Part shown: piece after piece, positions 4,077-51,903 of the stretch | Position numbering within the stretch: position 1 is the stretch's first letter | Layout of the letters: the number at the start of each line of letters is the position of its first letter | From: an uncultured Bacteroidota bacterium | Lineage (GTDB): Bacteria > Bacteroidota > Rhodothermia > Rhodothermales > DATKEJ01 | Direction: 5' to 3' | NCBI GenBank assembly: GCA_963768715.1 | Contig: CAVYJC010000011.1 | Location: 4,050 to 68,049 of the forward strand | Length of the DNA stretch: 64,000 nucleotides | Notes under the pieces: generated by a model | Told to the model about the DNA's origin: nothing | Seen by the model: the letters and a program-made list of their open reading frames with translations, nothing else | Databases searched by the model: none | Translations under genes and position numbers: made by a program

Positions 4077-5033
4077 ATGAGAACGTCACTGATCATCGCC
4101 CTAAACCTGATCGCGGCCTTTTCGTTCGCGCAGGCGCCAGACACCTCGGTCGCCAGCCCCGATTCGACCTACTTCTACGGGATGGTAACCGCCAAGGAGT
4201 CTGGTGCACCTCTTGAAGGCTTTTCGATGGAGTTGTACCCGTCAACTGCGGATGGCGCTGATAGACATTCCGCCAAACTACTCACAGGACTCAATGGCAA
4301 GTATTCCGCCATGATACCACGTGGCCACTACTGGATCCAGGCATTTCAGACACGATACCGAGACGTGTATGGTACCGCCACATTCGACAGGGACACGGTT
4401 TCCCTGAACTTCCAGCTTGAGTTGGATTCCCTTGGAGTGGACTGCGGACTCGAAAGATACGAAGGTCGTCTGATCGATGGCGAACAGGACGGGAGGATCA
4501 CATATCCTACGTTGGACGCCCGAACACAGCTTGAAGAGTATGCGCGGGCCAAGGGTTTTTTCACACCGGACTCACTCCTCGATCTCATAGGGCCGCAAGA
4601 GCTACAATATCCGGGGTTCCCACACGAGTCGCCCTGGCGCTGCAGCGATTCCCCGTTCAGCCTCTATAAGGATCTAAACGGTGATGGTCGCAAAGATGCA
4701 GTGATGTTGGCAGGTGTTCCCAACTGCATCCGCTTCGTGCATTGCTTTACCGTTGCCAAGGGCGTCGAGTGCGCCAAGAGCTGGGCTTCGTACAACCCCG
4801 ACAAACCACCTGACATGGGCTTCGCGGAAGCATGCTTCATGGACGCGCGGGATTCCCAACGCAACAGGTTTTGGGTTCAGTATACTCCGTCAGAATTAGC
4901 TGCGTCGGGTTACGAAGTCAAAGGCAATCGAATCTATGACGACGGAATGATCGTGTGTGGGGTTGGAGCGTCCCCGACCGCATTTCCAGAGGTTCCCGAG
5001 TTGGTTCCGCCGGCATCTCGCGGTGAAAGGTGA
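4077..5033 (+). CDS. secreted hypothetical protein with N-terminal carboxypeptidase-regulatory-like fold
   Basis: Signal peptide MRTSLIIALNLIAAFSFAQA. 'YFYGMVTAKESGAPLEGFSMELYP' is a CarboxypepD_reg-like strand pattern. Confidence 0.5.
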   Translation: MRTSLIIALNLIAAFSFAQAPDTSVASPDSTYFYGMVTAKESGAPLEGFSMELYPSTADGADRHSAKLLTGLNGKYSAMIPRGHYWIQAFQTRYRDVYGTATFDRDTVSLNFQLELDSLGVDCGLERYEGRLIDGEQDGRITYPTLDARTQLEEYARAKGFFTPDSLLDLIGPQELQYPGFPHESPWRCSDSPFSLYKDLNGDGRKDAVMLAGVPNCIRFVHCFTVAKGVECAKSWASYNPDKPPDMGFAEACFMDARDSQRNRFWVQYTPSELAASGYEVKGNRIYDDGMIVCGVGASPTAFPEVPELVPPASRGER

Positions 5034-7443: not shown

Positions 7444-7504
7444 CCCGCACGGGAATAAATCCCCATGTTCCCCACGCCCGCACGGGAATAAATCCCCGTG
7501 CTAC
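7444..7504 (-). repeat. two adjacent REP copies (variant 2; the left one is degenerate)
   Basis: cccgcacgggaataaatcccc[a/g]tg. The reverse complement reads GTAGCACGGGgatttattCCCGTGCGGG, i.e. a 5' GTAG followed by a hairpin. Confidence 0.75.
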
Positions 7505-7612
7505 AATGAATCACGCCCGCTAAAGCGGGCTGGGTGCGAAATGCCTTCCGGGTTCCAGCCGCATTACGATAGGGGCAATCCACAGCCCTGCGGCAGCAGG
7601 GCGGGACGTATT

Positions 7613-7641
7613 GTAGCACGGTTGCTTCAGCGCCGTGCGGC
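7613..7641 (+). repeat. REP copy (variant 1)
   Basis: GTAGCACGGttgcttcagcgCCGTGCGGC, preceded by the hairpin gccctgcggcagcagggc. The same module recurs 3x at 8271-8566. Confidence 0.75.
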
Positions 7642-7710
7642 CATGGCAGACGGCGCGACCGTCGAGGAGAGACGACAGGACCTGCAACCCCAACACCAGC
7701 TACCCGTGAT

Positions 7711-8230: not shown

Positions 8231-8270
8231 AATGGGTCAACCCCGCTGAAGCGGGCTAACGACAGTCGAA

Positions 8271-8566
8271 ATCGCCAGGAAGTGCCGAAAATTGAGGACA
8301 ACCCAGCCCTGCGGCAGCAGGGCGGGACGTATTGTAGCACGGTTGCTTCAGCGCCGTGCGGCTGGCGTCCCAATCGCCAGGAAGTGCCGAAATTTGAGGA
8401 CAACCCAGCCCTGCGGCAGCAGGGCGGGACGTATTGTAGCACGGTTGCTTCAGCGCCGTGCGGCTGGCGTCTGAATCGCCAGGAAGTGCCGAAATTTGAG
8501 GACAACCCAGCCCTGCGGCAGCAGGGCGGGACGTATTGTAGCACGGTTGCTTCAGCGCCGTGCGGC
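8271..8566 (+). repeat. tandem array, 3 x 102 bp, each unit ending in a variant-1 REP
   Basis: Unit starts (atcgccagga) at 8271, 8373 and 8475. GTAG of the REPs at 8334, 8436 and 8538. Confidence 0.9.
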
Positions 8567-32878: not shown

Positions 32879-32880
32879 CG

Positions 32881-32978
<98 letters not shown>

Positions 32979-33126: not shown

Positions 33127-33213
33127 GCCCAAGTGGCGGAATTGGTAGACGCGCTACGTTCAGGGCGTAGTGGCCTTATGGCCGTGGAGGTTCGAGTCCT
33201 CTCTTGGGCACCA
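33127..33213 (+). tRNA. tRNA-Leu (anticodon CAG), type II with long variable arm, CCA encoded
   Basis: Acceptor GCCCAAG/CTTGGGC; anticodon stem CTACG/CGTAG with loop TTCAGGG; variable arm TGGCCTTATGGCCGT; T-arm GGAGG-TTCGAGT-CCTCT; ACCA end. Confidence 0.9.
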
Positions 33214-33275: not shown

Positions 33276-33577
33276 GGTTGTTCGCTGAACCTGATCGGTC
33301 TGCCTGCCGGGATCTAGCAGCACCCCCGTTGCTCAACGTCGGTAGCCAAAACGACAACCCGGCTCCATGCTTACCTAACCCAGCCCCACGGCTCTACTCG
33401 GAGCGAACAAAACCTGCCTCCGTCGGTCAAAACAGCCTTTGGACCAGTGCGCGTTGGCTGAGACCATGGAGAAACAAGCACGGATACGAAAACAGGTCGG
33501 CTCGAACAAGTCGCTGACTCCATTACAGCGGGCCTTCCTCCTGAGAACACTGATCCTTCCGTTCACAAAAGCAGATC

Positions 33578-34048
33578 TTGAGCGAGAAACCAACTTCGTT
33601 CGAAGAGTTGTTGGCCGATCTAAGTCGGCACGGCGTTGAGTACATCCTCGTAGGAGGGTTGGCAGTGGCACTGTGTGGTTTCATTCGCGCAACGCTGGAC
33701 GTAGACATTCTTGTACAGGCGGCAGAGGGAAATATCCGCCGGCTGCTGGACCGACTCGCTCTCTTCGGAGAAGGTCACGCCCGGGAACTCAAGGTGAACG
33801 ATTTCACGCTGGAAGAGGGTAGTATCCGCATAGTCGAAGATTTTGCAGTCGATGTCTTCACTCTGATGAGTGGCAACACCTACGAGGATATGTTGCCGCT
33901 TACGGCGCGGCACAGGATTGAGGACACAGAGGTTGTGTTTCTCAATGCTGAGGGTTTGATCATGCTCAAGGCCGACTCGTTGCGCCCACAAGATCAAATT
34001 GATGTGCAGACCCTCAAGGACATCATGCGAGGTCAGGACAGTCAATAG
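33578..34048 (+). CDS. small nucleotidyltransferase-fold protein (minimal NTase, about 156 aa)
   Basis: TTG start. 'GVEYILVGGLAVALCGFIRATLDVDILV' (GG...G..R.T.D.D pattern), 'LIMLKADSLRPQDQIDVQTL'. Confidence 0.6.
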   Translation: MSEKPTSFEELLADLSRHGVEYILVGGLAVALCGFIRATLDVDILVQAAEGNIRRLLDRLALFGEGHARELKVNDFTLEEGSIRIVEDFAVDVFTLMSGNTYEDMLPLTARHRIEDTEVVFLNAEGLIMLKADSLRPQDQIDVQTLKDIMRGQDSQ

Positions 34049-34206
34049 GCCTCAAATCTGATCGACGGCTCTGATCGAGCGGATCATGTTTTTGTCCAAC
34101 CAATACCACGATCGCTCGTGAGCGACTGGGCGCCAAGATGGCCGCCGGATAACTTCAAACACCGGATCTTGGCCCCGAGCGGGTGGGGCTTCAGGCTGCA
34201 AACTTA

Positions 34207-41261: not shown

Positions 41262-41373
41262 CGATTTCGGATCGATCGTAGCGAGGCAAAGCTCATGCGG
41301 AAGCATAGGACCGAACAAAACCTGTGTCTGTCGGTCAAAATAATCTTTGGACCAATGCGCGTTGGCGGCGACC

Positions 41374-41490
41374 ATGGAGAAACAAGCACGGATACGAAAA
41401 CAGGTCGGCTCGAACAAGTCGCTGCCTCCGCTACGGCAGCGCCTTCCTCCTGAGAACATTGATCCTTCCGTTCACAAAAGCAGATCTTGA
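41374..41490 (+). CDS. possible 38-codon upstream ORF coupled to the NTase gene
   Basis: MEKQARIRKQVGSNKSLPPLRQRLPPENIDPSVHKSRS*. Its TGA overlaps the TTG start (tcTTGAgc). The frame is not preserved in copy 1 because of a 1-nt indel. Confidence 0.2.
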   Translation: MEKQARIRKQVGSNKSLPPLRQRLPPENIDPSVHKSRS

Positions 41491-41957
41491 GCGAGAAACC
41501 AACTTCGTTCGAAGAGTTGTTGGCCGACCTGAGTCGTCACGGCGTTGAGTACATCCTCGTAGGAGGGTTGGCGGTGGCACTGTGTGGTTTCGTTCGCGCA
41601 ACACTGGACGTAGACATTCTTGTACAGGCGGGAGAGGGAAATATCCGCCGGCTCCTGGGCCGACTCACTCACTTCGGAGAAGGCCACGCCCGGGAACTCA
41701 AGGCGAGCGATTTTACCCTGGAAGAGGGTAGTATCCGCATAGTCGAAGATTTTGCAGTCGATGTCTTCACCCTGATGAGTGGCAACACCTACGAGGATAT
41801 GTTGCCGCTTACGGCGCGGCACAGGATTGAGGACACAGAGGTTGTGTTTCTCAATGCTGAGGGTTTGATCATGCTCAAGGCCGACTCGTTGCGCCCACAA
41901 GATCAAATTGATGTGCAGACCCTCAAGGACATTATGCGAAGTCAGGACAGTCAATAG
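41487..41957 (+). CDS. small nucleotidyltransferase-fold protein, second copy
   Basis: 148 of 156 residues identical to 33578..34048 (counted by eye). Confidence 0.6.
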   Translation: MSEKPTSFEELLADLSRHGVEYILVGGLAVALCGFVRATLDVDILVQAGEGNIRRLLGRLTHFGEGHARELKASDFTLEEGSIRIVEDFAVDVFTLMSGNTYEDMLPLTARHRIEDTEVVFLNAEGLIMLKADSLRPQDQIDVQTLKDIMRSQDSQ

Positions 41958-42081
41958 GCCTCAAATCTGATCGACGACTCTGATGGGGCGCGGAATGTTT
42001 TCTTGTCCAAACGACACCACGATCGCTCGTGAGCGACTGGGCGCCAAAATGGGCACCAGATAACTTCAAACACCAAACCTG

Positions 42082-44919: not shown

Positions 44920-45429
44920 CTAGACTCCGCCGTACTGCGCTCGCAAGGCTACATCCGGCCGACTTCCCGGCTCCAGTGGTTCGCCGAAGTACGGAGGCAC
45001 CTTCCCCAGCAGCCTCAGGTACAATGAGATCTGGGCGGCGTGATGAACCTCGTGCTCGAGCAATGCCCAGAGCCGGGATGCCCTCGTTGATGGAGGCTCG
45101 CCAAACGTCTCGAATAAACCGCGGACATCCAGCCCGTCCAGCTTGCCCCGTGCTCGCGCGTGAGCATCCTCGAAGGACATCCTCAGCTTGTCGATGTCGC
45201 GGACGCGTTTCGGCAAACGGGCCCGGTCGAGATCCCAATCATCCTCGAAGAGCCCACGGATCATGAGATCCTCAGCCTGTGCGATGTGTACGAACTGCTG
45301 ACCCAGATTCATCATCTCTGGTAGAGGACGCCAATCGAGATCCGGCTCCTCGACCTGATCAAGCATCTGCAGTGTGACGGCGCGATATCGTTCGAAGTGC
45401 TCCCAGTAGTCGCTTAACTCGTCTATCAT
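44920..45429 (-). CDS. DinB-family (four-helix bundle) protein
   Basis: 'LGQQFVHIAQAEDL', 'LLEHEVHHAAQISLYLRLLG'. Confidence 0.7.
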   Translation of the reverse strand: MIDELSDYWEHFERYRAVTLQMLDQVEEPDLDWRPLPEMMNLGQQFVHIAQAEDLMIRGLFEDDWDLDRARLPKRVRDIDKLRMSFEDAHARARGKLDGLDVRGLFETFGEPPSTRASRLWALLEHEVHHAAQISLYLRLLGKVPPYFGEPLEPGSRPDVALRAQYGGV

Positions 45430-45605
45430 GATGTTAGTAGCTTCTATGGGATGCCGTGCTGGATAACGTATGAATGTTCGGCATCGTTTTCCATTCTTAC
45501 ATGAATGCCCGCCTGAACCTGAGGTCGAGTGAGTTCCCACGCACAGACGTTGAGAGTCTGGGATAAGGATCCCGCGTGAAGGGCACGGACCTCAACCGGT
45601 TTCAG

Positions 45606-46002
45606 CATGCGGAGTTTGCGGCGGCGCCGTATTTTCCATGCGGACACTCGCTTATCCAACCCGAGCGTTTCTTTGTCGGCGCATATGCTTGCATGATCGG
45701 GTCGCGATCGTGGACGCCTTCTCTCGGCGCTGCGCGACCGGCATTTGTACCTGTTGATTCACCGCCCCTCATCGGCGGCGGCGAACTCCCACACCTCGGA
45801 GCCAGGCTGCGCCGTGCTGGAAGCACTCGAGACAGGCGAACTGGACGAGGATCGGTACCGGAGCCACCAGAAACTGAAAAAGGAAGTGGCCTATCTGGAG
45901 CGCCGGAAAGACGAGTCGGCCGCGTTCGCACAGCGGGAGCATGACAGGAAGCTCACCCGCCTGTACAGGAGAACGATGAAGCAGAAGCGAGACGGGAGAT
46001 AG
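45606..46002 (+). pseudogene. rsgA: internally deleted ghost copy of rsgA (5' leader fused to the last ~70 codons)
   Basis: 45606-45781 aligns with 50252-50427 (the rsgA leader). 45785-46002 aligns with 51329-51542 ('EPGCAVLEAL.TGELD.DRY.SH.KL.KEVAYLERRKD.SAAFAQR.H.R.LTRLYRRT.KQKRD'). Confidence 0.8.
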
Positions 46003-46156
46003 GGGGCAGGGCGCACCGATTTTGCCTGGCGCCACACTGTTCCTCTTTCGCAGGGTTGGCGTCTCTAATGACTTGCCCCCGCGTGAAAGACTGGAGCCGG
46101 AACTCTGTACCTAAGACAAGAGTTGACATTTTCAAGTATAAACTTGGGAAACAGTT

Positions 46157-46390
46157 ATGGAAGCAACGGCGAAAGACCTTCGTTTTCATTCGAAGGAGCT
46201 TCTCGATACGGTAAAACGAGGAGAAGAGGTCCTGATCACGTATCGCGGCAAGCCCTGCGCGAAGCTGATCCCGATAGGGGAGGAGGATACCGGAGCAGAC
46301 GTTAAGGAGCTCTTTGGCATTTGGGCCGATCACGCCGAATCGGAATCCGTGCAGGACTTCGTTGACAAGGCGCGGGAACGGAGGCAATGA
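46157..46390 (+). CDS. type II antitoxin, Phd/YefM family
   Basis: 'AKDLRFHSKELLDTVKRGEEVLITYRGKPCAKLIP'. ATGA overlap with the downstream PIN gene. Confidence 0.8.
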   Translation: MEATAKDLRFHSKELLDTVKRGEEVLITYRGKPCAKLIPIGEEDTGADVKELFGIWADHAESESVQDFVDKARERRQ

Positions 46391-46770
46391 TGCTCGTCGA
46401 CACGGACGTTCTCGTCTGGTATCTGCGAGGCGACGAGCGAGCCCGAGCGGTCATTGAGCGCCTCCCTTCGTTCGCTGTGTCGGTCGTTACGTACATGGAA
46501 CTCGTCCAGGGAATGCGCGACAAGTCCGAGCTCCGCGCGCTGCGGCGGGCGCTGCGGGAATGGAATGCGCGCGTCCTCTACGTCGACGAAGAGATTTCGA
46601 TCAAAGCCATGTTTCTCGTCGAGCGGCACTTCCTGAGCGATTCCCTCAGGCTGGCAGATGCGTTGATTGCGTCTACGGCGCTCGCGACCGGACTCCCAAT
46701 CCTGACAGCCAATCGGAAGCACTACAAAGCGGTTAGCCAACTGGAGATCAAGCGTTTTCGGCCGGGGTAG
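46387..46770 (+). CDS. vapC: type II toxin, PIN-domain VapC ribonuclease
   Basis: 'MLVDTDVLVWYL', 'SVVTYMEL', 'ADALIASTAL...ILTANRKHY'. Confidence 0.8.
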   Translation: MMLVDTDVLVWYLRGDERARAVIERLPSFAVSVVTYMELVQGMRDKSELRALRRALREWNARVLYVDEEISIKAMFLVERHFLSDSLRLADALIASTALATGLPILTANRKHYKAVSQLEIKRFRPG

Positions 46771-46957
46771 GTTCGGGGTTCGGCCTGCCGGGCTCCAGAT
46801 TTTGTCCCGATGTGCCCAGGCATGCTTATCGCGCGACCCCGTGGGCGCGTGCAATCTCCGAAAGCTTCAGAGGGTCGACGATGTCGCCCTTGTGGAGCGC
46901 GACGGATTAGCGTCTCGCACGCGATTTTGGGGGCACATTCTCATCCCGATAGCGCAG

Positions 46958-47293
46958 TCACGGATACAAGCACGCATCCAATATCGCCAGCACCTCGTCA
47001 ATCAGGCTCTTCGGGACCTCGCCAACTCTCTTTGCGCGTCGCGCCCTGAAATCAACGGAACGGATCTGGTCCACCATCACGAGGCCCTCCATGCCGTCCA
47101 CCGCGTCGAGCGACACGTGAAACGGATAACCACGATCAGCACGGGTGATGGGGCAGACGATCGACATACCCGTCCGGTCGTTGAAGAGGTCGTTGCTGAT
47201 CACCAGTGCCGGTCGCCATCCCCTTTGCTCCGAACCGGATGTTGAACCGAAGAAAAGAGAAACGACATCGCCCTTCCTTGGCGTGTATGCCAT
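46958..47293 (-). CDS. mazF: type II toxin, MazF/PemK endoribonuclease
   Basis: 'PRKGDVV...SGSEQRGWRPALVIS', 'VCPITRADRGYPFHV', 'VMVDQIRSVD'. Confidence 0.8.
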   Translation of the reverse strand: MAYTPRKGDVVSLFFGSTSGSEQRGWRPALVISNDLFNDRTGMSIVCPITRADRGYPFHVSLDAVDGMEGLVMVDQIRSVDFRARRAKRVGEVPKSLIDEVLAILDACLYP

Positions 47294-47294
47294 C

Positions 47295-47543
47295 CTACCA
47301 GACCTCCTTGCCCGCCGAATCGCCCCATGCTTCCTCGCCCGGCTCGTAATCCTCAGGGATCTCCCTGACCAAGTCCTCGAGCTTGTACTTGCCCCTGCTT
47401 CGGGACACAGGCTTGACTATCAGTATGCCTTCTTCAACCGATATCACGACCTCCTCGCCGATCGTGATACCGGCTTCCCGGAGCAGATCCTTCGGTATCC
47501 GGATTCCCTGGCTATTGCCCCAGCGCTGGATCTTCGTTGTCAT
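47295..47543 (-). CDS. mazE: type II antitoxin, AbrB/MazE (SpoVT) family
   Basis: 'KIQRWGNSQGIRIPKDLLREAGI'. Its stop lies 1 nt upstream of the mazF start. Confidence 0.8.
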   Translation of the reverse strand: MTTKIQRWGNSQGIRIPKDLLREAGITIGEEVVISVEEGILIVKPVSRSRGKYKLEDLVREIPEDYEPGEEAWGDSAGKEVW

Positions 47544-47802
47544 GTGGGCCTTCGATTGTGGTGATATACATGTATATACGTATACTCGACGAGAGTTCCG
47601 ACCGGTATGCGTGTCGTATCTCTCCAGTTCAATGTCGCACTTTGAAGTTGGCGGTCCGACGCACTCGTCATATTTCTGACCTTCGCCATGCTCAATTATC
47701 AGAAGTTCGTGAATGCCCGTGCTAGTCAGGTTCCTCTCGGTCGCTCCGATCTATATTCGACTCGGCGCGATCACCGAACCCTCCGACTTACGACCGATCG
47801 TC

Positions 47803-49164
47803 ATGGATATTCTGACGCTGCACCGACTCCATTTCGCGTTCACCATCGTCTACCATTACATCTTCCCGCAGATCACGATGGGTCTGGCCCTGCTGATCTT
47901 CGTTCTTAAGACCATGGGCGTTCGGGGGGACGAGGCGGCCAATCGTGCCGTACGCTTCTGGGCAAAGATCTTCGGAGTTACGTTCGTGATGGGCGTCATT
48001 ACGGGCATCCCCATGGAGTTCCAGTTCGGTACGAACTGGTCGCGCTTTTCCGAAGCATCAGGTGGCATCATCGGGCAGACGCTGGCGATGGAGGGGGTCT
48101 TTGCCTTTTTCCTCGAGTCGTCGTTTCTGTACGTGCTCTTGTTCGGAGAGAAGCGTCTCGGTCCGCGGGGTCATTGGGTCGCTTCGCTGCTCGTGTTTAT
48201 AGGCACCTGGCTGAGCGCCTTCTTCATCGTTTGTACGAACGCGTGGATGCAGCATCCCGTCGGCTATGCGGTCGGCCCTGACGGGGTCATCCGACTCGAG
48301 AGCCTCACCGCATTGTTCACGAATCCGTGGGTGTGGCCGCAGTATCTGCATGTCATGGTCGGCACGACGATAACGGCCAGCTTCCTGATGGCTTCGATCG
48401 GTGCGTTCTACCTTCTTCGTGGTCGCCACGTCGAGACGGCGCGGCGATTCCTGTCCCTCGCTGTCGTCGTTGGTTTTGTCGCCAGCGTGCTCGCCATCTT
48501 CCCGACGGGTGACATGCACGCCAAGCTGGTCCACGACCATCAGCCTACTGCCTTCGCAGCGATGGAAGGGCAGTTCTACGCGGAGGAGGGCGCCGGTCTT
48601 GTCCTCATCGGCCAGCCCAATATGGACGAGCTGCGGCTCGACAATCCGATCGTGCTGCCGAACGTGCTTTCCTTCCTGACCCATCAGCGCTGGAAGGCCC
48701 GCGTCATTGGCCTGACCGACTATGACCGGGATCTGTGGCCCGACAATGTGGAGCTGCTTTACTACGCTTACCACGTTATGGCCGGTCTCGGTACCATGTT
48801 CATTCTGCTCATGGCACTCAGCGTGCTGTTTCTTTGGCGCCGGAGTCTGTACGGACGTCGCTGGCTGCTCTGGGGATTGATGCTCGCGTTGCCGTTTCCG
48901 TTCATCGCCAACACCGCAGGGTGGATGACTGCCGAGCTCGGCCGGCAACCGTGGATCATCTACGGCCTGATGAGAACCGCGGACGGCTATTCGACGAACG
49001 TCTCTTCGGGTAACGCCCTGTTCACGCTCATCGGATTCGCGGGCATGTACGCCCTCGTTTCGCTGCTGTATGCCTTCCTGACGGCCCGAATCATTGCAAA
49101 AGGACCGGGTCCCAACGATTCCGTAGAGGATATGCTCGCGACCGAAACATCCAGGGAGGCATAG
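47803..49164 (+). CDS. cydA: cytochrome bd ubiquinol oxidase subunit I
   Basis: 'RLHFAFTIVYHYIFPQITMGLA', 'GIPMEFQFGTNW', 'AMEGVFAFFLES', 'GWMTAELGRQPW'. Confidence 0.9.
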   Translation: MDILTLHRLHFAFTIVYHYIFPQITMGLALLIFVLKTMGVRGDEAANRAVRFWAKIFGVTFVMGVITGIPMEFQFGTNWSRFSEASGGIIGQTLAMEGVFAFFLESSFLYVLLFGEKRLGPRGHWVASLLVFIGTWLSAFFIVCTNAWMQHPVGYAVGPDGVIRLESLTALFTNPWVWPQYLHVMVGTTITASFLMASIGAFYLLRGRHVETARRFLSLAVVVGFVASVLAIFPTGDMHAKLVHDHQPTAFAAMEGQFYAEEGAGLVLIGQPNMDELRLDNPIVLPNVLSFLTHQRWKARVIGLTDYDRDLWPDNVELLYYAYHVMAGLGTMFILLMALSVLFLWRRSLYGRRWLLWGLMLALPFPFIANTAGWMTAELGRQPWIIYGLMRTADGYSTNVSSGNALFTLIGFAGMYALVSLLYAFLTARIIAKGPGPNDSVEDMLATETSREA

Positions 49165-49168
49165 TCTG

Positions 49169-50209
49169 ATGGAGACCCTCTGGTTCTGGCTCCTGACCTG
49201 GGTTATTGCCACGTACGTTGTGCTCGACGGGTTCGATTTCGGCGTCGGCATCATTCATTTGTTCGTGGCGCGGAACGAGGCCGAACGCGCCCAGGTGCTG
49301 CGATCGATCGGGCCCGTATGGGATGGAAACGAAGTCTGGCTCATCGTCGCGGGAGGGACCATCTTCTTTGCGTTCCCCAAACTCCTGGCCGTCTCGTTCA
49401 GCGGCTTCTACCTCGCGCTCATGCTCGTCCTGTGGCTCCTCATGTTTCGGGCGCTCGGCATCGAGCTCCGGCACCAGGTGGCCGATTCGCTCTGGCGACA
49501 ATTCTGGGATGTGGCATTTGCCTGGTCAAGTGCATTGTTGGCGCTCTTCCTGGGAGCCGCGCTCGGAAACCTCGTGCGGGGCGTGTCGATGAACGAGGAC
49601 GGGACCTTTTTTGCACCCCTGTGGACCGACTTCACTGTCGGCCAGAACGTCGGCATTCTCGATGTCTTTACGATTCTTGTGGCGGTTACGGCTGTCGCGT
49701 CCCTGGCGCATCACGGGGCCCTCTGGTTAAGCGCCCGAACCGATGCGTCGGTGGAACGTCGCGCACGCCGAGCCGCATCGATTCTCTGGCCTGTCGTGGC
49801 GCTTCTGGCGATCGCAACCACCGTCGCAACCTTCTTCACTCAGGAGAACGTCGGGTTGAATGTCTTCGAGATGCCGGTCGGCCTGATTCTCGCGGCCGTT
49901 GCACTGGTAGCTCACGGCGGCGCATTGGTCTTCAGAATGCGTGGAAAGGCGATGTGGGCCTTCCTTTCATCGGCCGCGTATCTGTACGGGATGGTAGGTT
50001 TGGCGGCCTTTGGCATGTATCCATTCGTGCTTCCCGCCAGGAATCCCGCTTTTGGGCTCACGATCCAGGATGCGGCGGCGCCCGCTGCCGGACTGGAGAC
50101 AGCACTCTTCTGGTGGATTCCCGGGATGCTCCTGGCGTGCGCCTACGCCGTGTACGTGTATTCGAGCATGCCGCGGACGTTCTCAGTACACGACGGTGAC
50201 GGCCACTGA
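49169..50209 (+). CDS. cydB: cytochrome bd ubiquinol oxidase subunit II
   Basis: 'YVVLDGFDFGVGI', 'GPVWDGNEVWLI'. Starts 4 nt after cydA. Confidence 0.9.
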   Translation: METLWFWLLTWVIATYVVLDGFDFGVGIIHLFVARNEAERAQVLRSIGPVWDGNEVWLIVAGGTIFFAFPKLLAVSFSGFYLALMLVLWLLMFRALGIELRHQVADSLWRQFWDVAFAWSSALLALFLGAALGNLVRGVSMNEDGTFFAPLWTDFTVGQNVGILDVFTILVAVTAVASLAHHGALWLSARTDASVERRARRAASILWPVVALLAIATTVATFFTQENVGLNVFEMPVGLILAAVALVAHGGALVFRMRGKAMWAFLSSAAYLYGMVGLAAFGMYPFVLPARNPAFGLTIQDAAAPAAGLETALFWWIPGMLLACAYAVYVYSSMPRTFSVHDGDGH

Positions 50210-50465
50210 ACACGCTCTGATCTTAAAGAGCGCTGCCGCTACCGGCCTCATCATGCGGAGTTTCCCGCCGCGCCGTATCTTTCCGCCGGACATTGCTCAC
50301 CTAAATCCAGAGCGTTTTTTTGTCAGCGCATATGGTTGCCTGATCGGGTCGCGATCGTAAACGCCGTTGCCCGGCGTCGCGCGACCAGCATTTCTATCTG
50401 TTGATTCATCGCCCCTCTCGGCGGCGGTGGCACTTTGTGCTGCTCAAACGTTATTCAAGCAAGCA

Positions 50466-51542
50466 ATGTCAATTTCCAATTTGGGCTGGACTCCGTTCTT
50501 CAGCCAGACTCTCGAACAATTCGACGCTCCCGGATTGAATCCGGCCCGCGTCTTTCGACAAGACAAACACCGATTCCTCGTTCACACAGGATCCGACATC
50601 GTCCCCGCCATACTGACCGGTTCGCTGACGAGCCGGCTCGCTGCAGCGGGCGACAGTGTCACTGTAGGGGACTGGGTCCTTGTGACGGCAGACCTCAACA
50701 GCGAGACACAATCCATTCACGAGCTGCTTCCGCGCCGAAGTGCTTTCAAACGAAAAAGTGCGGGTGCTGCGACGCGTGAACAGGTGGTGGCGGCCAATCT
50801 CGACATCGTGTTCCTTATCAGTGGACTGGATGGCGACTTCAACCTTCGCAGGATCGAGCGCTATGTAACACAGGCGTGGAGTAGTGGTGCTACACCCGTC
50901 ATCCTCCTGAACAAGGCCGACGTTTGCGACGATGTAGAAGGCCGATTGATGGCAGCTAGCGCCGTTGCGCCTGGTGTTGATGTCCATACCGTCAGTGCGA
51001 GGAACGGAACAGGTGTCAAGGAAATCGAGGAGTATCTGCGGCCCGGCGTCACAATTGCGCTGCTTGGATCTTCCGGTGTTGGCAAGTCAACTTTACTCAA
51101 TTCGTTGATGGGTGAGCACCGGATGGAGGTCGGCGACGTCCGCGAGGATGACAGCCGGGGTCGCCATACCACAACGCACCGTGAGATGATCATTCTTCCG
51201 AGCGGAGCACTCGTCATCGATACACCCGGAATGCGCGAACTGCAGCTCTGGAGCTCGAGCGAAGATCTCCAGCGGACCTTCGCGGAGGTGTCTGATCTGG
51301 CAGCACAGTGCCGATTCAACGATTGCAGCCACACTACGGAGCCCGGTTGCGCGGTGCTCGAGGCGCTGGCGTCGGGAGAACTGGATCAGGATCGTTATGA
51401 CAGCCACCTGAAGCTCGAGAAGGAGGTGGCCTACCTGGAGCGTCGGAAGGACGACTCGGCCGCGTTTGCACAACGGCAGCACGAAAGGGAGCTCACGCGG
51501 TTGTATAGACGAACAATAAAGCAGAAGCGAGACCGCAGATAA
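50466..51542 (+). CDS. rsgA: ribosome small-subunit-dependent GTPase A
   Basis: Circularly permuted GTPase motifs 'LLNKADV', 'LLGSSGVGKSTLLN', 'DTPGMRE'. Zn motif 'CRFNDCSHTTEPGC'. Confidence 0.9.
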   Translation: MSISNLGWTPFFSQTLEQFDAPGLNPARVFRQDKHRFLVHTGSDIVPAILTGSLTSRLAAAGDSVTVGDWVLVTADLNSETQSIHELLPRRSAFKRKSAGAATREQVVAANLDIVFLISGLDGDFNLRRIERYVTQAWSSGATPVILLNKADVCDDVEGRLMAASAVAPGVDVHTVSARNGTGVKEIEEYLRPGVTIALLGSSGVGKSTLLNSLMGEHRMEVGDVREDDSRGRHTTTHREMIILPSGALVIDTPGMRELQLWSSSEDLQRTFAEVSDLAAQCRFNDCSHTTEPGCAVLEALASGELDQDRYDSHLKLEKEVAYLERRKDDSAAFAQRQHERELTRLYRRTIKQKRDRR

Positions 51543-51578
51543 GGGTTCGTATGAATGTCCAGCCTTCCCGGCAAGCTT

Positions 51579-51713
51579 CTACTTCAGCAAAAGGACAGAT
51601 TTAGACGACTGAAATCGCTCCGTCGTGAGACGATAGATATATACTCCGCCGGGCAGATTGTTTGCATGTAGCGTTACGGTGTGTGCACCAGCCGAAAGCG
51701 TTGTCTCAAGCAT
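51579..51713 (-). pseudogene. orphan T9SS C-terminal-domain remnant
   Basis: The minus strand reads ..LSAGAHTVTLHANNLPGGVYIYRLTTERFQSSKSVLLLK*. There is no gene body upstream. It lies inside the 139-bp tandem duplication. Confidence 0.55.
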
Positions 51714-51903
51714 CCGTCAACTCTGCGGTTTCAACTGCAGCAGAACACAGATTCCGGAAGCTGTCTGGACGATAGATATATACTCCGCCGGGCAGATTGT
51801 TTGCATGTAGCGTTGCGGCGTGTGCACCAGCCGAAAGCGTTGTCTCAAGGAGCGCGTCGACCCGGCGGTTTCAACCGCTGCGCACACAGATTCCGGAAGC
51901 TGT
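51631..51903. repeat. tandem duplication, 2 x 139 bp
   Basis: cgatagatatatactccgccgggcagattgtttgcatgtagcgtt... recurs at 51631 and 51770. Confidence 0.9.

Follow-up and report, generated by a model that had tools for sequence, protein, structure and literature searches.

What is the origin of the direct repeats that bracket a cytochrome bd oxidase operon and two toxin-antitoxin (TA) pairs in the genome of an uncultured Rhodothermales bacterium, and do these repeats mark a segment that was inserted and can leave again? The DNA analyzed here, referred to as the window, is a stretch of 64,000 nucleotides (nt) of an uncultured Bacteroidota bacterium (assembly GCA_963768715.1, contig CAVYJC010000011.1, positions 4,050 to 68,049 of the forward strand). 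In this window, a truncated copy of rsgA, the gene of a ribosome-assembly GTPase, lies 5' of the cydAB genes of the oxidase, and an intact rsgA gene lies 3' of them. The truncated copy is referred to as the ghost, as in a first-pass annotation made from the sequence alone, in which the arrangement was read as the scar of an insertion or duplication. The arrangement is indeed a recombination scar, and the ghost does derive from a former rsgA transcription unit, of which it keeps the leader and the 3' end. The reading that is favored here, with a probability of about one half, is that the ghost is the decayed one of two deeply diverged rsgA alleles, which would have been juxtaposed by inter-lineage recombination at a rearrangement-prone Rhodothermales locus.

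Anatomy and age of the two rsgA copies

The intact gene (allele A; 50466-51542, plus strand) encodes an RsgA of 358 amino acids (aa), which is recognized by PF03193 and by TIGR00157 (168.6 bits, with a cutoff of 100) and in which the zinc-finger pattern C-x2-C-x-H-x5-C is present as CRFNDCSHTTEPGC. It is preceded on the same strand by a leader (50241-50465), delimited by alignment and fold. The protein is 99% identical in aa sequence to that of contig L161 (P0001), and the gene is 93% identical in nt sequence to that of contig L170. Self-BLAST and repeat finding show that 45595-45781 matches 50241-50427 (81% identity across 189 alignment columns, 4 of them with gaps; E 7e-44), this match beginning about 225 nt 5' of the rsgA ATG at 50466, and that 45789-46005 matches 51329-51545 (78.3% over 217 nt, gapless, E 4e-47), this match running 3 nt beyond the rsgA stop codon. 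No further copies of either part are found in the 64-kb window.

The ghost, on the plus strand, consists of a leader part (45595-45788), a conserved non-coding 5' region that also aligns with the leaders of the related contigs L161, L162, L163, L165 and L081, and of an rsgA 3' fragment (45789-46005). The two parts meet at a junction of ACTCC with CACAC, where the microhomology amounts to just 1-2 nt. The counterpart of approximately 50428-51328 is absent, which comprises 32-38 nt of the 5' untranslated region (UTR) along with the ATG and the first 287 codons; a loss of about 0.9 kb between a leader match and a 3'-end match agrees with the first-pass annotation. The remaining reading frame (45790-46002) covers the last 70 codons and the stop codon and is free of stops and frameshifts. 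It is matched as an RsgA C-terminal fragment in NCBIfam, and gene callers call it as a hypothetical protein of 62 aa. Being homologous to rsgA and having lost the start codon and the OB-fold and GTPase domains, the ghost classifies as an rsgA pseudogene. From its end to the intact leader there are 4235 nt (46006-50240). Three further public assemblies contain the stretch from the upstream DinB gene through the ghost to the TA genes at 99.9-100% identity (L167 from ENA; L168 from the NCBI metagenome-assembled genome (MAG) GCA_049579085.1; L169 from Logan), so that the ghost is not an artefact of one assembly.

Over their 70 shared codons, the two copies differ at 10, 3 and 34 first, second and third codon positions, respectively. 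This corresponds to a proportion of synonymous differences (pS) of 0.64, a synonymous divergence (dS) of about 1.4 and a ratio of nonsynonymous to synonymous divergence (dN/dS) of 0.068; the synonymous sites keep approximately 36% identity. Since synonymous sites are saturated while dN/dS is low, the copies are not recent duplicates but old alleles, each of which diverged as part of a working gene. A recent segmental or tandem duplication should give near-identity, neutral sites included, and this is not what is observed (dS 1.4, 78-81% nt identity); the repeats are therefore not recent copies of each other. Their edges fall where selective constraint ends (leader and coding sequence) and do not mark insertion junctions.

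The 0.9-kb deletion, on the other hand, is recent relative to the divergence of the alleles. The signs of relaxed selection, namely a dN/dS approaching 1, stops and frameshifts, are not seen in the ghost, which has no stops and the low dN/dS given above. This low value is taken to point to a very recent deletion; with ghost copies that are 99.9-100% identical, such a deletion is inseparable from ongoing function. 

It was also proposed that the repeats could loop out or exchange the whole segment. At 19-22% divergence, and with perfect identity extending over no more than 15 and 18 nt at a time, homologous loop-out or exchange between the copies is unlikely and would be very inefficient. In Bacillus subtilis, transformation falls logarithmically with divergence up to 15%, and illegitimate routes dominate beyond this value (PMC6382021). 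A possible trace of gene conversion between ghost and intact gene, the ghost-like residues 302-315 of the L170 protein (P0242), was rejected, as the patch is not identical to the ghost at the nt level and looks like shared ancestral states.

The locus in relatives and the order of events

Between the two copies lie, as the first-pass annotation listed them and as the Pfam and NCBIfam domain scans used for checking the gene calls agree, a phd/yefM-vapC operon, a mazEF operon on the opposite strand and cydAB. The cydAB block (47726-50209, plus strand) comprises 77 nt of upstream sequence, cydA (47803-49164, in a reading frame that is open from 47713) and cydB (49169-50209); the two genes are adjacent and full length (PF01654, 470 bits, for CydA; PF02322, 272 bits, for CydB), as is required of a bd oxidase. 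A junction of 31 nt (50210-50240), which is found in the window only, separates the stop codon of cydB from the intact leader.

Informative contigs of relatives were obtained by protein searches and contig look-ups, and all of them are short (1.6-6.2 kb). In a scan of 185,579 species-representative genomes, the best RsgA match has 53% aa identity and the synteny is not shared; in a metagenome scan, L081 (64% RsgA identity) is the one useful relative, the other matches being without synteny. The contig L163, whose RsgA is 77% identical to that of the window, has the order DUF6036 gene, leader-rsgA, cydAB, DinB gene on the minus strand, and a gene with a C-terminal sorting domain (CTD) of the type IX secretion system (T9SS), also on the minus strand. 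L161, which is approximately 97% identical in nt sequence to the window from 50241 on, begins with the final 9 nt of cydB, followed by an intergenic stretch, a 3' fragment of DinB, a HAF-repeat lipoprotein gene, leader-rsgA and a T9SS-CTD remnant. L161 represents a co-occurring strain; the ENA assembly from which it comes also contains L167, a contig with 100% identity to the window. In L170 (GCA_049579085.1, JBAUND010000007.1, 91-1587) rsgA is followed after 78 nt by a minus-strand DinB gene of the L163 type (93%), without cydAB; this contig shares its MAG with the ghost-TA contig L168, and the MAG may mix strains. L162 (RsgA 82% identical in aa sequence) has the gene hyp269, a PhnB-like gene and rsgA, and L166 (62%) has a hyp450-like gene, a URO-D gene on the minus strand, rsgA and a DUF6036 gene on the minus strand. 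The rsgA/cydAB/DinB locus is thus rearrangement-prone and strewn with half-genes, and the gene order is different in each sampled relative.

The variability expected from a synteny comparison is thus observed, but not in the form that had been anticipated: the empty site, in which a DinB gene is directly followed by leader-rsgA, is present on no contig, and the variants that are found are other rearrangements. The upstream gene itself (44920-45432, minus strand, divergent from the ghost; type D2) was called dinB in the first-pass annotation; its product belongs to the DinB family PF05163/PF12867 and is not DNA polymerase IV. With the DinB genes of L163 and L170 it shares 84-86% nt identity (dS 0.44-0.51).

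The cydAB genes of L163 (1996-4479) are 90.5% identical in nt sequence to those of the window, with the homology beginning 77 nt 5' of cydA. The homology of both L161 and L163 to the cydAB block of the window ends at the cydB stop codon, and that of L161 resumes only at 50241. At the place of the 31-nt junction of the window, L161 carries 1.56 kb, made up of the intergenic stretch, the DinB 3' fragment and the HAF-repeat gene; the intergenic stretch and the 150-nt DinB fragment match the cydB-DinB region of L163 at 90% identity. Because an intact rsgA stands directly 5' of cydAB in L163, the linkage of the ghost to cydAB is shared and probably old, and therefore the newcomer may be the downstream intact rsgA, and not cydAB. 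For the same reason, its place 5' of cydAB, the ghost is favored as the older copy.

When window and L161 are combined, the order in the population is DinB2(-), ghost rsgA(G), phd-vapC, mazEF, cydAB, the DinB1' fragment and HAF gene (in brackets, as the window is without them), leader-rsgA(A) and T9SS remnants. This order holds one L163-like unit (rsgA-cydAB-DinB1), of which rsgA and DinB are both decayed, with an intact DinB and an intact rsgA flanking it. Gene remnants occur on either side of the intact allele, namely the DinB fragment in L161 and T9SS-CTD remnants at 51562-51903. 

From these observations we infer an order and a direction of events. The ancestral order would have been leader-rsgA, cydAB, DinB(-) and T9SS-CTD gene(-), as still present in L163. 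A second leader-rsgA (allele A) would have recombined in 3' of cydAB together with its upstream HAF-repeat gene, and its arrival would have truncated the DinB1 copy and the T9SS-CTD gene, a state that is kept in the co-occurring L161. The upstream rsgA (allele G), now redundant, would then have lost the ATG and the first 287 codons by a 0.9-kb microhomology deletion, generating the ghost. The phd-vapC and mazEF genes would have been inserted into the rsgA-cydA spacer, and in the window strain a further deletion of 1.5 kb would have eliminated both the DinB fragment and the HAF gene, so that no more than 31 nt now separate cydB from the intact leader.

The TA pairs appear to be later additions, since TA genes are absent from the rsgA-cydA spacer of L163. 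The phd/yefM-vapC operon (46157-46770, plus strand) consists of two genes (46157-46390 and 46387-46770) with a 4-nt overlap (PF02604, 32.8 bits with a cutoff of 29.8; PF01850, 60.5 bits with a cutoff of 23.6). The mazE-mazF operon (46958-47543, minus strand) consists of mazF (46958-47293) and mazE (47295-47543), which are 1 nt apart (PF04014, 48.8 bits with a cutoff of 24.7; PF02452, 92.6 bits with a cutoff of 23.1). As pairs of adjacent small genes with domains above cutoff and an operon-like spacing, both have the predicted features of type II TA systems. That they stabilize the segment is a conjecture, built on the concept of the stabilization of chromosomal segments by TA systems as reviewed in PMC5543033 and PMC3827094. 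In L081 (2680-3340), an AbrB/SpoVT-type antitoxin gene and a PIN-toxin-like open reading frame, recognized by eye from the translations, follow directly 3' of rsgA; this TA-like pair is unrelated in sequence to phd-vapC of the window. It seems that TA modules settle beside rsgA repeatedly.

The divergence along the locus is uneven. Between the window and L163, dS is 0.29 for cydA, 0.34 for cydB, 0.18-0.20 for DUF6036 and 0.44-0.51 for DinB, and it is 1.23 for rsgA; between L170 and L163, it is 1.40 for rsgA and 0.21 for the adjoining DinB gene. Allele classes of rsgA separated by a dS above 1.2 are thus found within closely related contexts, with flanks at a dS of 0.2-0.5. This pattern can be read in two ways, as a repeated swapping between lineages either of rsgA alleles or of the flanking genes.

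The reading in which allele A is the newcomer has several weak sides. The foremost is the direction of the events, since the same data fit the import of a segment of ghost allele, cydAB and DinB1 beside a resident DinB2-(HAF)-rsgA(A). The ghost, which is the positional counterpart of the L163 rsgA, has only 65% aa identity to it over the last 70 codons, and the D2 DinB gene to the left of the ghost is accounted for in no other way than as a paralogue. Because the L161 contig starts at the last 9 nt of cydB, it shows nothing 5' of cydAB. In addition to the shortness of the comparison contigs, L168 and L170 come from one and the same possibly strain-mixed MAG. Finally, the low dS of cydAB, DinB and DUF6036, in a comparison that covers the genes of the locus, could reflect a recent exchange of those genes.

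Competing explanations and known systems

The explanation that survives best beside the favored one, possible although less probable, is the reverse of it: a segment with rsgA allele G, cydAB and DinB1 (with or without the TA genes) from a related lineage would have joined a resident DinB2(-)-(HAF)-leader-rsgA(A), after which the incoming rsgA(G) and DinB1' would have decayed. The bd oxidase would thereby have been brought into the rsgA locus, as the first-pass annotation had it, either through a single crossover of a circular intermediate or through homology-facilitated illegitimate recombination (HFIR) with an anchor in DinB or rsgA. HFIR is well established as a route (PMC3240628, PMC6382021), and the interleaved gene order is explained equally well by this reading. 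The order D-R'-C-D'-R (DinB, ghost, cydAB, DinB fragment, rsgA) of the window together with L161 is that of a Campbell-type integration of an R'-C-D' circle into a D-R site, and the decayed copies are both inner ones. It is also in agreement with such an import that L170 has an rsgA-DinB unit without cydAB, and that the genes upstream of rsgA are hyp269 in L162 and the hyp450-like gene in L166. In L163, a 33-nt fragment of the DinB 3' region (1897-1929, matching 4633-4665) is located 5' of cydA, so that cydAB is likewise bracketed there by a remnant and an intact DinB gene; this bracket hints that the cydAB block may move by recombination that duplicates its target.

A foreign origin of cydAB is also in line with the nearest homologues of CydA, which has 74-80% aa identity to proteins labelled NC10, Nitrospirales, Longimicrobiales, Planctomycetota and Bipolaricaulia, and 88% to one labelled Latescibacterota, with no Bacteroidota names among the top matches. 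These identities are unusually high for inter-phylum pairs and suggest that, over longer times, cydAB of this type is passed on horizontally. That cydAB follows the species tree, which the first-pass annotation named as evidence against its own proposal, is accordingly not obvious. The composition does not point in the same direction: GC content and GC content at third codon positions of cydAB, as well as of the TA genes, are within the range of the neighboring core genes, so that the proposed check for foreign cydAB gives no anomaly. The import is further disfavored by the absence of the empty site DinB2-leader-rsgA from the contigs, and a clear mosaic breakpoint is not seen when window DinB and L163 DinB are compared by sliding identity. 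Moreover, the DinB fragment of L161 runs past the breakpoint into unrelated, not DinB2-like, sequence, and cydAB and DinB1' are L163-like but the ghost allele is not. Irrespective of whether allele A or the cydAB segment was the newcomer, the ghost would be a pseudogene of a different allele, formed without an integrase, the repeats would be poor substrates for excision, and the TA genes would have come later.

An ancient tandem duplication within one genome, by which paralogous rsgA genes with their own leaders would have coexisted for long until one was recently deleted, is improbable. Both copies do keep the same leader, and the low dN/dS with saturated dS implies that both were functional for most of their divergence. 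Two intact rsgA copies, however, are present on no contig of a relative, and the C-terminus of the ghost is nearer to the RsgA of L162 (89% aa identity) than to that of the intact copy 4.6 kb away (82%). A tandem duplication should also duplicate the intervening DNA, and a second set of cydAB or TA genes is not present.

Still less probable is a functional ghost, acting as a basic RsgA C-terminal tail protein of 62-85 aa, through a leader or promoter that drives or regulates phd-vapC, or by titrating a regulator of rsgA. The in-frame fragment without stops or frameshifts would allow for the first of these roles. The leader is fully kept, with phd-vapC on the same strand 151 nt past the fragment, and by pairwise BLAST it is approximately 76-81% identical in all alleles, versus 36% at synonymous sites. 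Nevertheless, the deletion took away the start codon along with the context 5' of it, and a stand-alone family is not found, as a database search gave only the 62-aa reading frame of the ghost and one RsgA fragment. The low dN/dS is explained by the past of the fragment as part of a full gene, and the three other assemblies, being 99.9-100% identical, are uninformative on current selection. Finally, a chimeric join of strain variants that generated the ghost or the cydB-rsgA junction is hardly credible: the three short-read contigs do all break in the 5' end of cydA (47799, 47829, 48043), and the same ENA assembly does have the alternative path L161 while the 50210-50240 junction is known from the window only, but the DinB-ghost-TA stretch is identically assembled in three independent assemblies, proteins identical to RsgA, CydA and the TrxR-like protein of the window are recorded on one public contig of 905,986 nt, and a divergence of 19-22% exceeds what repeat-induced mis-assembly allows.

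In kind, the locus is ordinary: it would be either an in situ gene displacement or a partial heterologous duplication of which one copy later decayed. The general concept of gene displacement in situ reportedly was put forward by Omelchenko et al. in 2003. In Vibrio cholerae, sequential displacement of effector genes of the type VI secretion system by incoming alleles leaves remnants (PMC5361080). As in that system, a divergent homologue is found beside the resident one without a dedicated integrase, one of the two decays to a 3' remnant next to kept neighbors, and the alleles are much more diverged than the flanks. Unlike in that system, the gene concerned encodes a ribosome-biogenesis GTPase and not an effector under diversifying selection, there is a single remnant instead of an array, and the direction of displacement is open to both readings. 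With HFIR and Campbell integration (PMC3240628, PMC6382021), the locus would share the partial duplication of an anchor gene flanking foreign cargo and the low-homology junctions, here 1-2 nt at the ghost deletion and the unassignable 31 nt at 50210-50240. The mechanism is here a putative one, and a mosaic breakpoint inside the repeats is not demonstrable.

The locus also resembles integrase islands at gene 3' ends, as its accessory genes, those of the oxidase and of the TA modules, are enclosed by direct repeats that stem from a host gene. However, no integrase, transposase or relaxase domains are detected by Pfam and NCBIfam scans of the main reading frames of 42.3-52.8 kb, the repeats are 78-81% and not near-identical, the truncated copy is the upstream one and has the promoter-leader, and the cydAB-rsgA linkage would be older than the arrangement. 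Short near-identical att repeats are not found, the sole direct repeats here being the diverged pairs of leader and 3' end. With TA-stabilized segments, such as superintegron cassettes and integrative and conjugative elements, the locus has in common two intact type II TA operons inside a repeat-bracketed stretch (PMC5543033, PMC3827094). It differs from them in that stabilization is here an idea, in that TA genes are absent from L163, and in that the repeats are poor recombination substrates.

The rsgA leader, neighboring features and meaning of the locus

The leader of approximately 190 nt is 76-81% identical between alleles whose synonymous sites are saturated. It is under purifying selection, as judged from the 81% identity between the copies of the window where synonymous sites keep only 36%. 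It has an invariant core of about 30 nt, TTTTTGTCAGCGCATATGSTTGCCTGATC, and three predicted hairpins, of which the later ones are GC-rich. Besides the two copies in the window (50241-50465 and 45595-45788), it is conserved likewise in L161 (1575-1799), L162 (approximately 817-1015) and L163 (approximately 552-773), and the core is also present in L165 and L081. No Rfam family matches the leader when the window is searched with the gathering threshold, nor when E<=10 is allowed for 50150-50520. An nhmmer profile of the leader searched against 170 loci matches only 5' of rsgA, in a close clade with RsgA at least 64% identical.

Covariation lends the hairpins modest support: of 26 base pairs, 4 change on both sides, as counted in 7 close sequences from which the structure was itself derived, with z-scores of -0.8 to -2.2; 93% of cells are paired, versus 28-51% after shifting the partner columns by 1-3 positions. 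The leader may act either as a 5' UTR with RNA structure or as a block of operator and promoter. An interpretation of its hairpins as an integron attC site was discarded by eye, as the R'' and R' cores are not complementary and an integrase is absent. It is conceivable, although doubtful at present, that rsgA and its leader form an exchangeable module in this Rhodothermales clade, the window showing a half-finished replacement, and that the leader is a new cis-regulatory element of a ribosome-assembly GTPase, perhaps serving as a homology anchor as well.

Downstream of the intact rsgA and convergent with it, a gene with a T9SS C-terminal sorting domain has left two tandem remnants of its 3' end (51562-51903, minus strand), which were identified with TRF. 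With a period of 139 nt and 91% identity, they cover the last ~44 codons and are orphaned between rsgA and the TrxR-like gene; their translation, ending in LETTLSAGAHTVTLHANNLPGGVYIYRLTTERFQSSKSVLLLK and a stop, corresponds to the C-terminal end of a Por_Secre_tail protein that is intact in L163 (5276-5821). The terminator scan finds a terminator-like hairpin at 46775-46796, after vapC; the scans for sigma-70 promoters and terminators give site numbers that are not above those of shuffled sequence.

A second repeat-bracketed segment is located nearby. A direct repeat of 767 nt with 93% identity (33400-34163 and 41308-42074) brackets 7.1 kb with pckA, an aminotransferase gene and the gene of an 853-aa T9SS protein. 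Each of its copies holds a gene for a 156-aa DUF6036 nucleotidyltransferase (33578-34048 and 41487-41957; dS 0.11), and the first copy begins approximately 190 nt past tRNA-Leu(CAG) (33127-33213). The same DUF6036 gene is found directly 5' of rsgA in L163, and a DUF6036 gene is found 3' of rsgA in L166. Just 5' of the tRNA-Leu gene there is a heptamer microsatellite, (CGAACAT/CGAACAC)n, at 32879-32973. Further away, at 8270-8566, there is a tandem repeat of 102 nt (2.9 copies, 98%), with diverged partial copies approximately 700 nt upstream (7470-7647). Short repeats of the CAAACACCAAAC type, similar to the heptamer microsatellite, occur in the cydB-DinB spacers of L161 (40-115) and L163 (4484-4545).

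The locus leaves the knowledge of cytochrome bd oxidases and TA systems unchanged. In practical terms, it cautions that accessory genes bracketed by repeats do not necessarily form a mobile or excisable unit; the repeats here are islands of constraint in two old alleles. In the favored reading, it would be a clean natural case of housekeeping-type alleles that were juxtaposed by recombination, with the redundant copy deleted, caught part-way. Two features may deserve the attention of specialists, namely the unusually deep allelic divergence of rsgA compared with that of its neighbors and the strongly constrained, unannotated leader, a candidate for a new cis-regulatory element.

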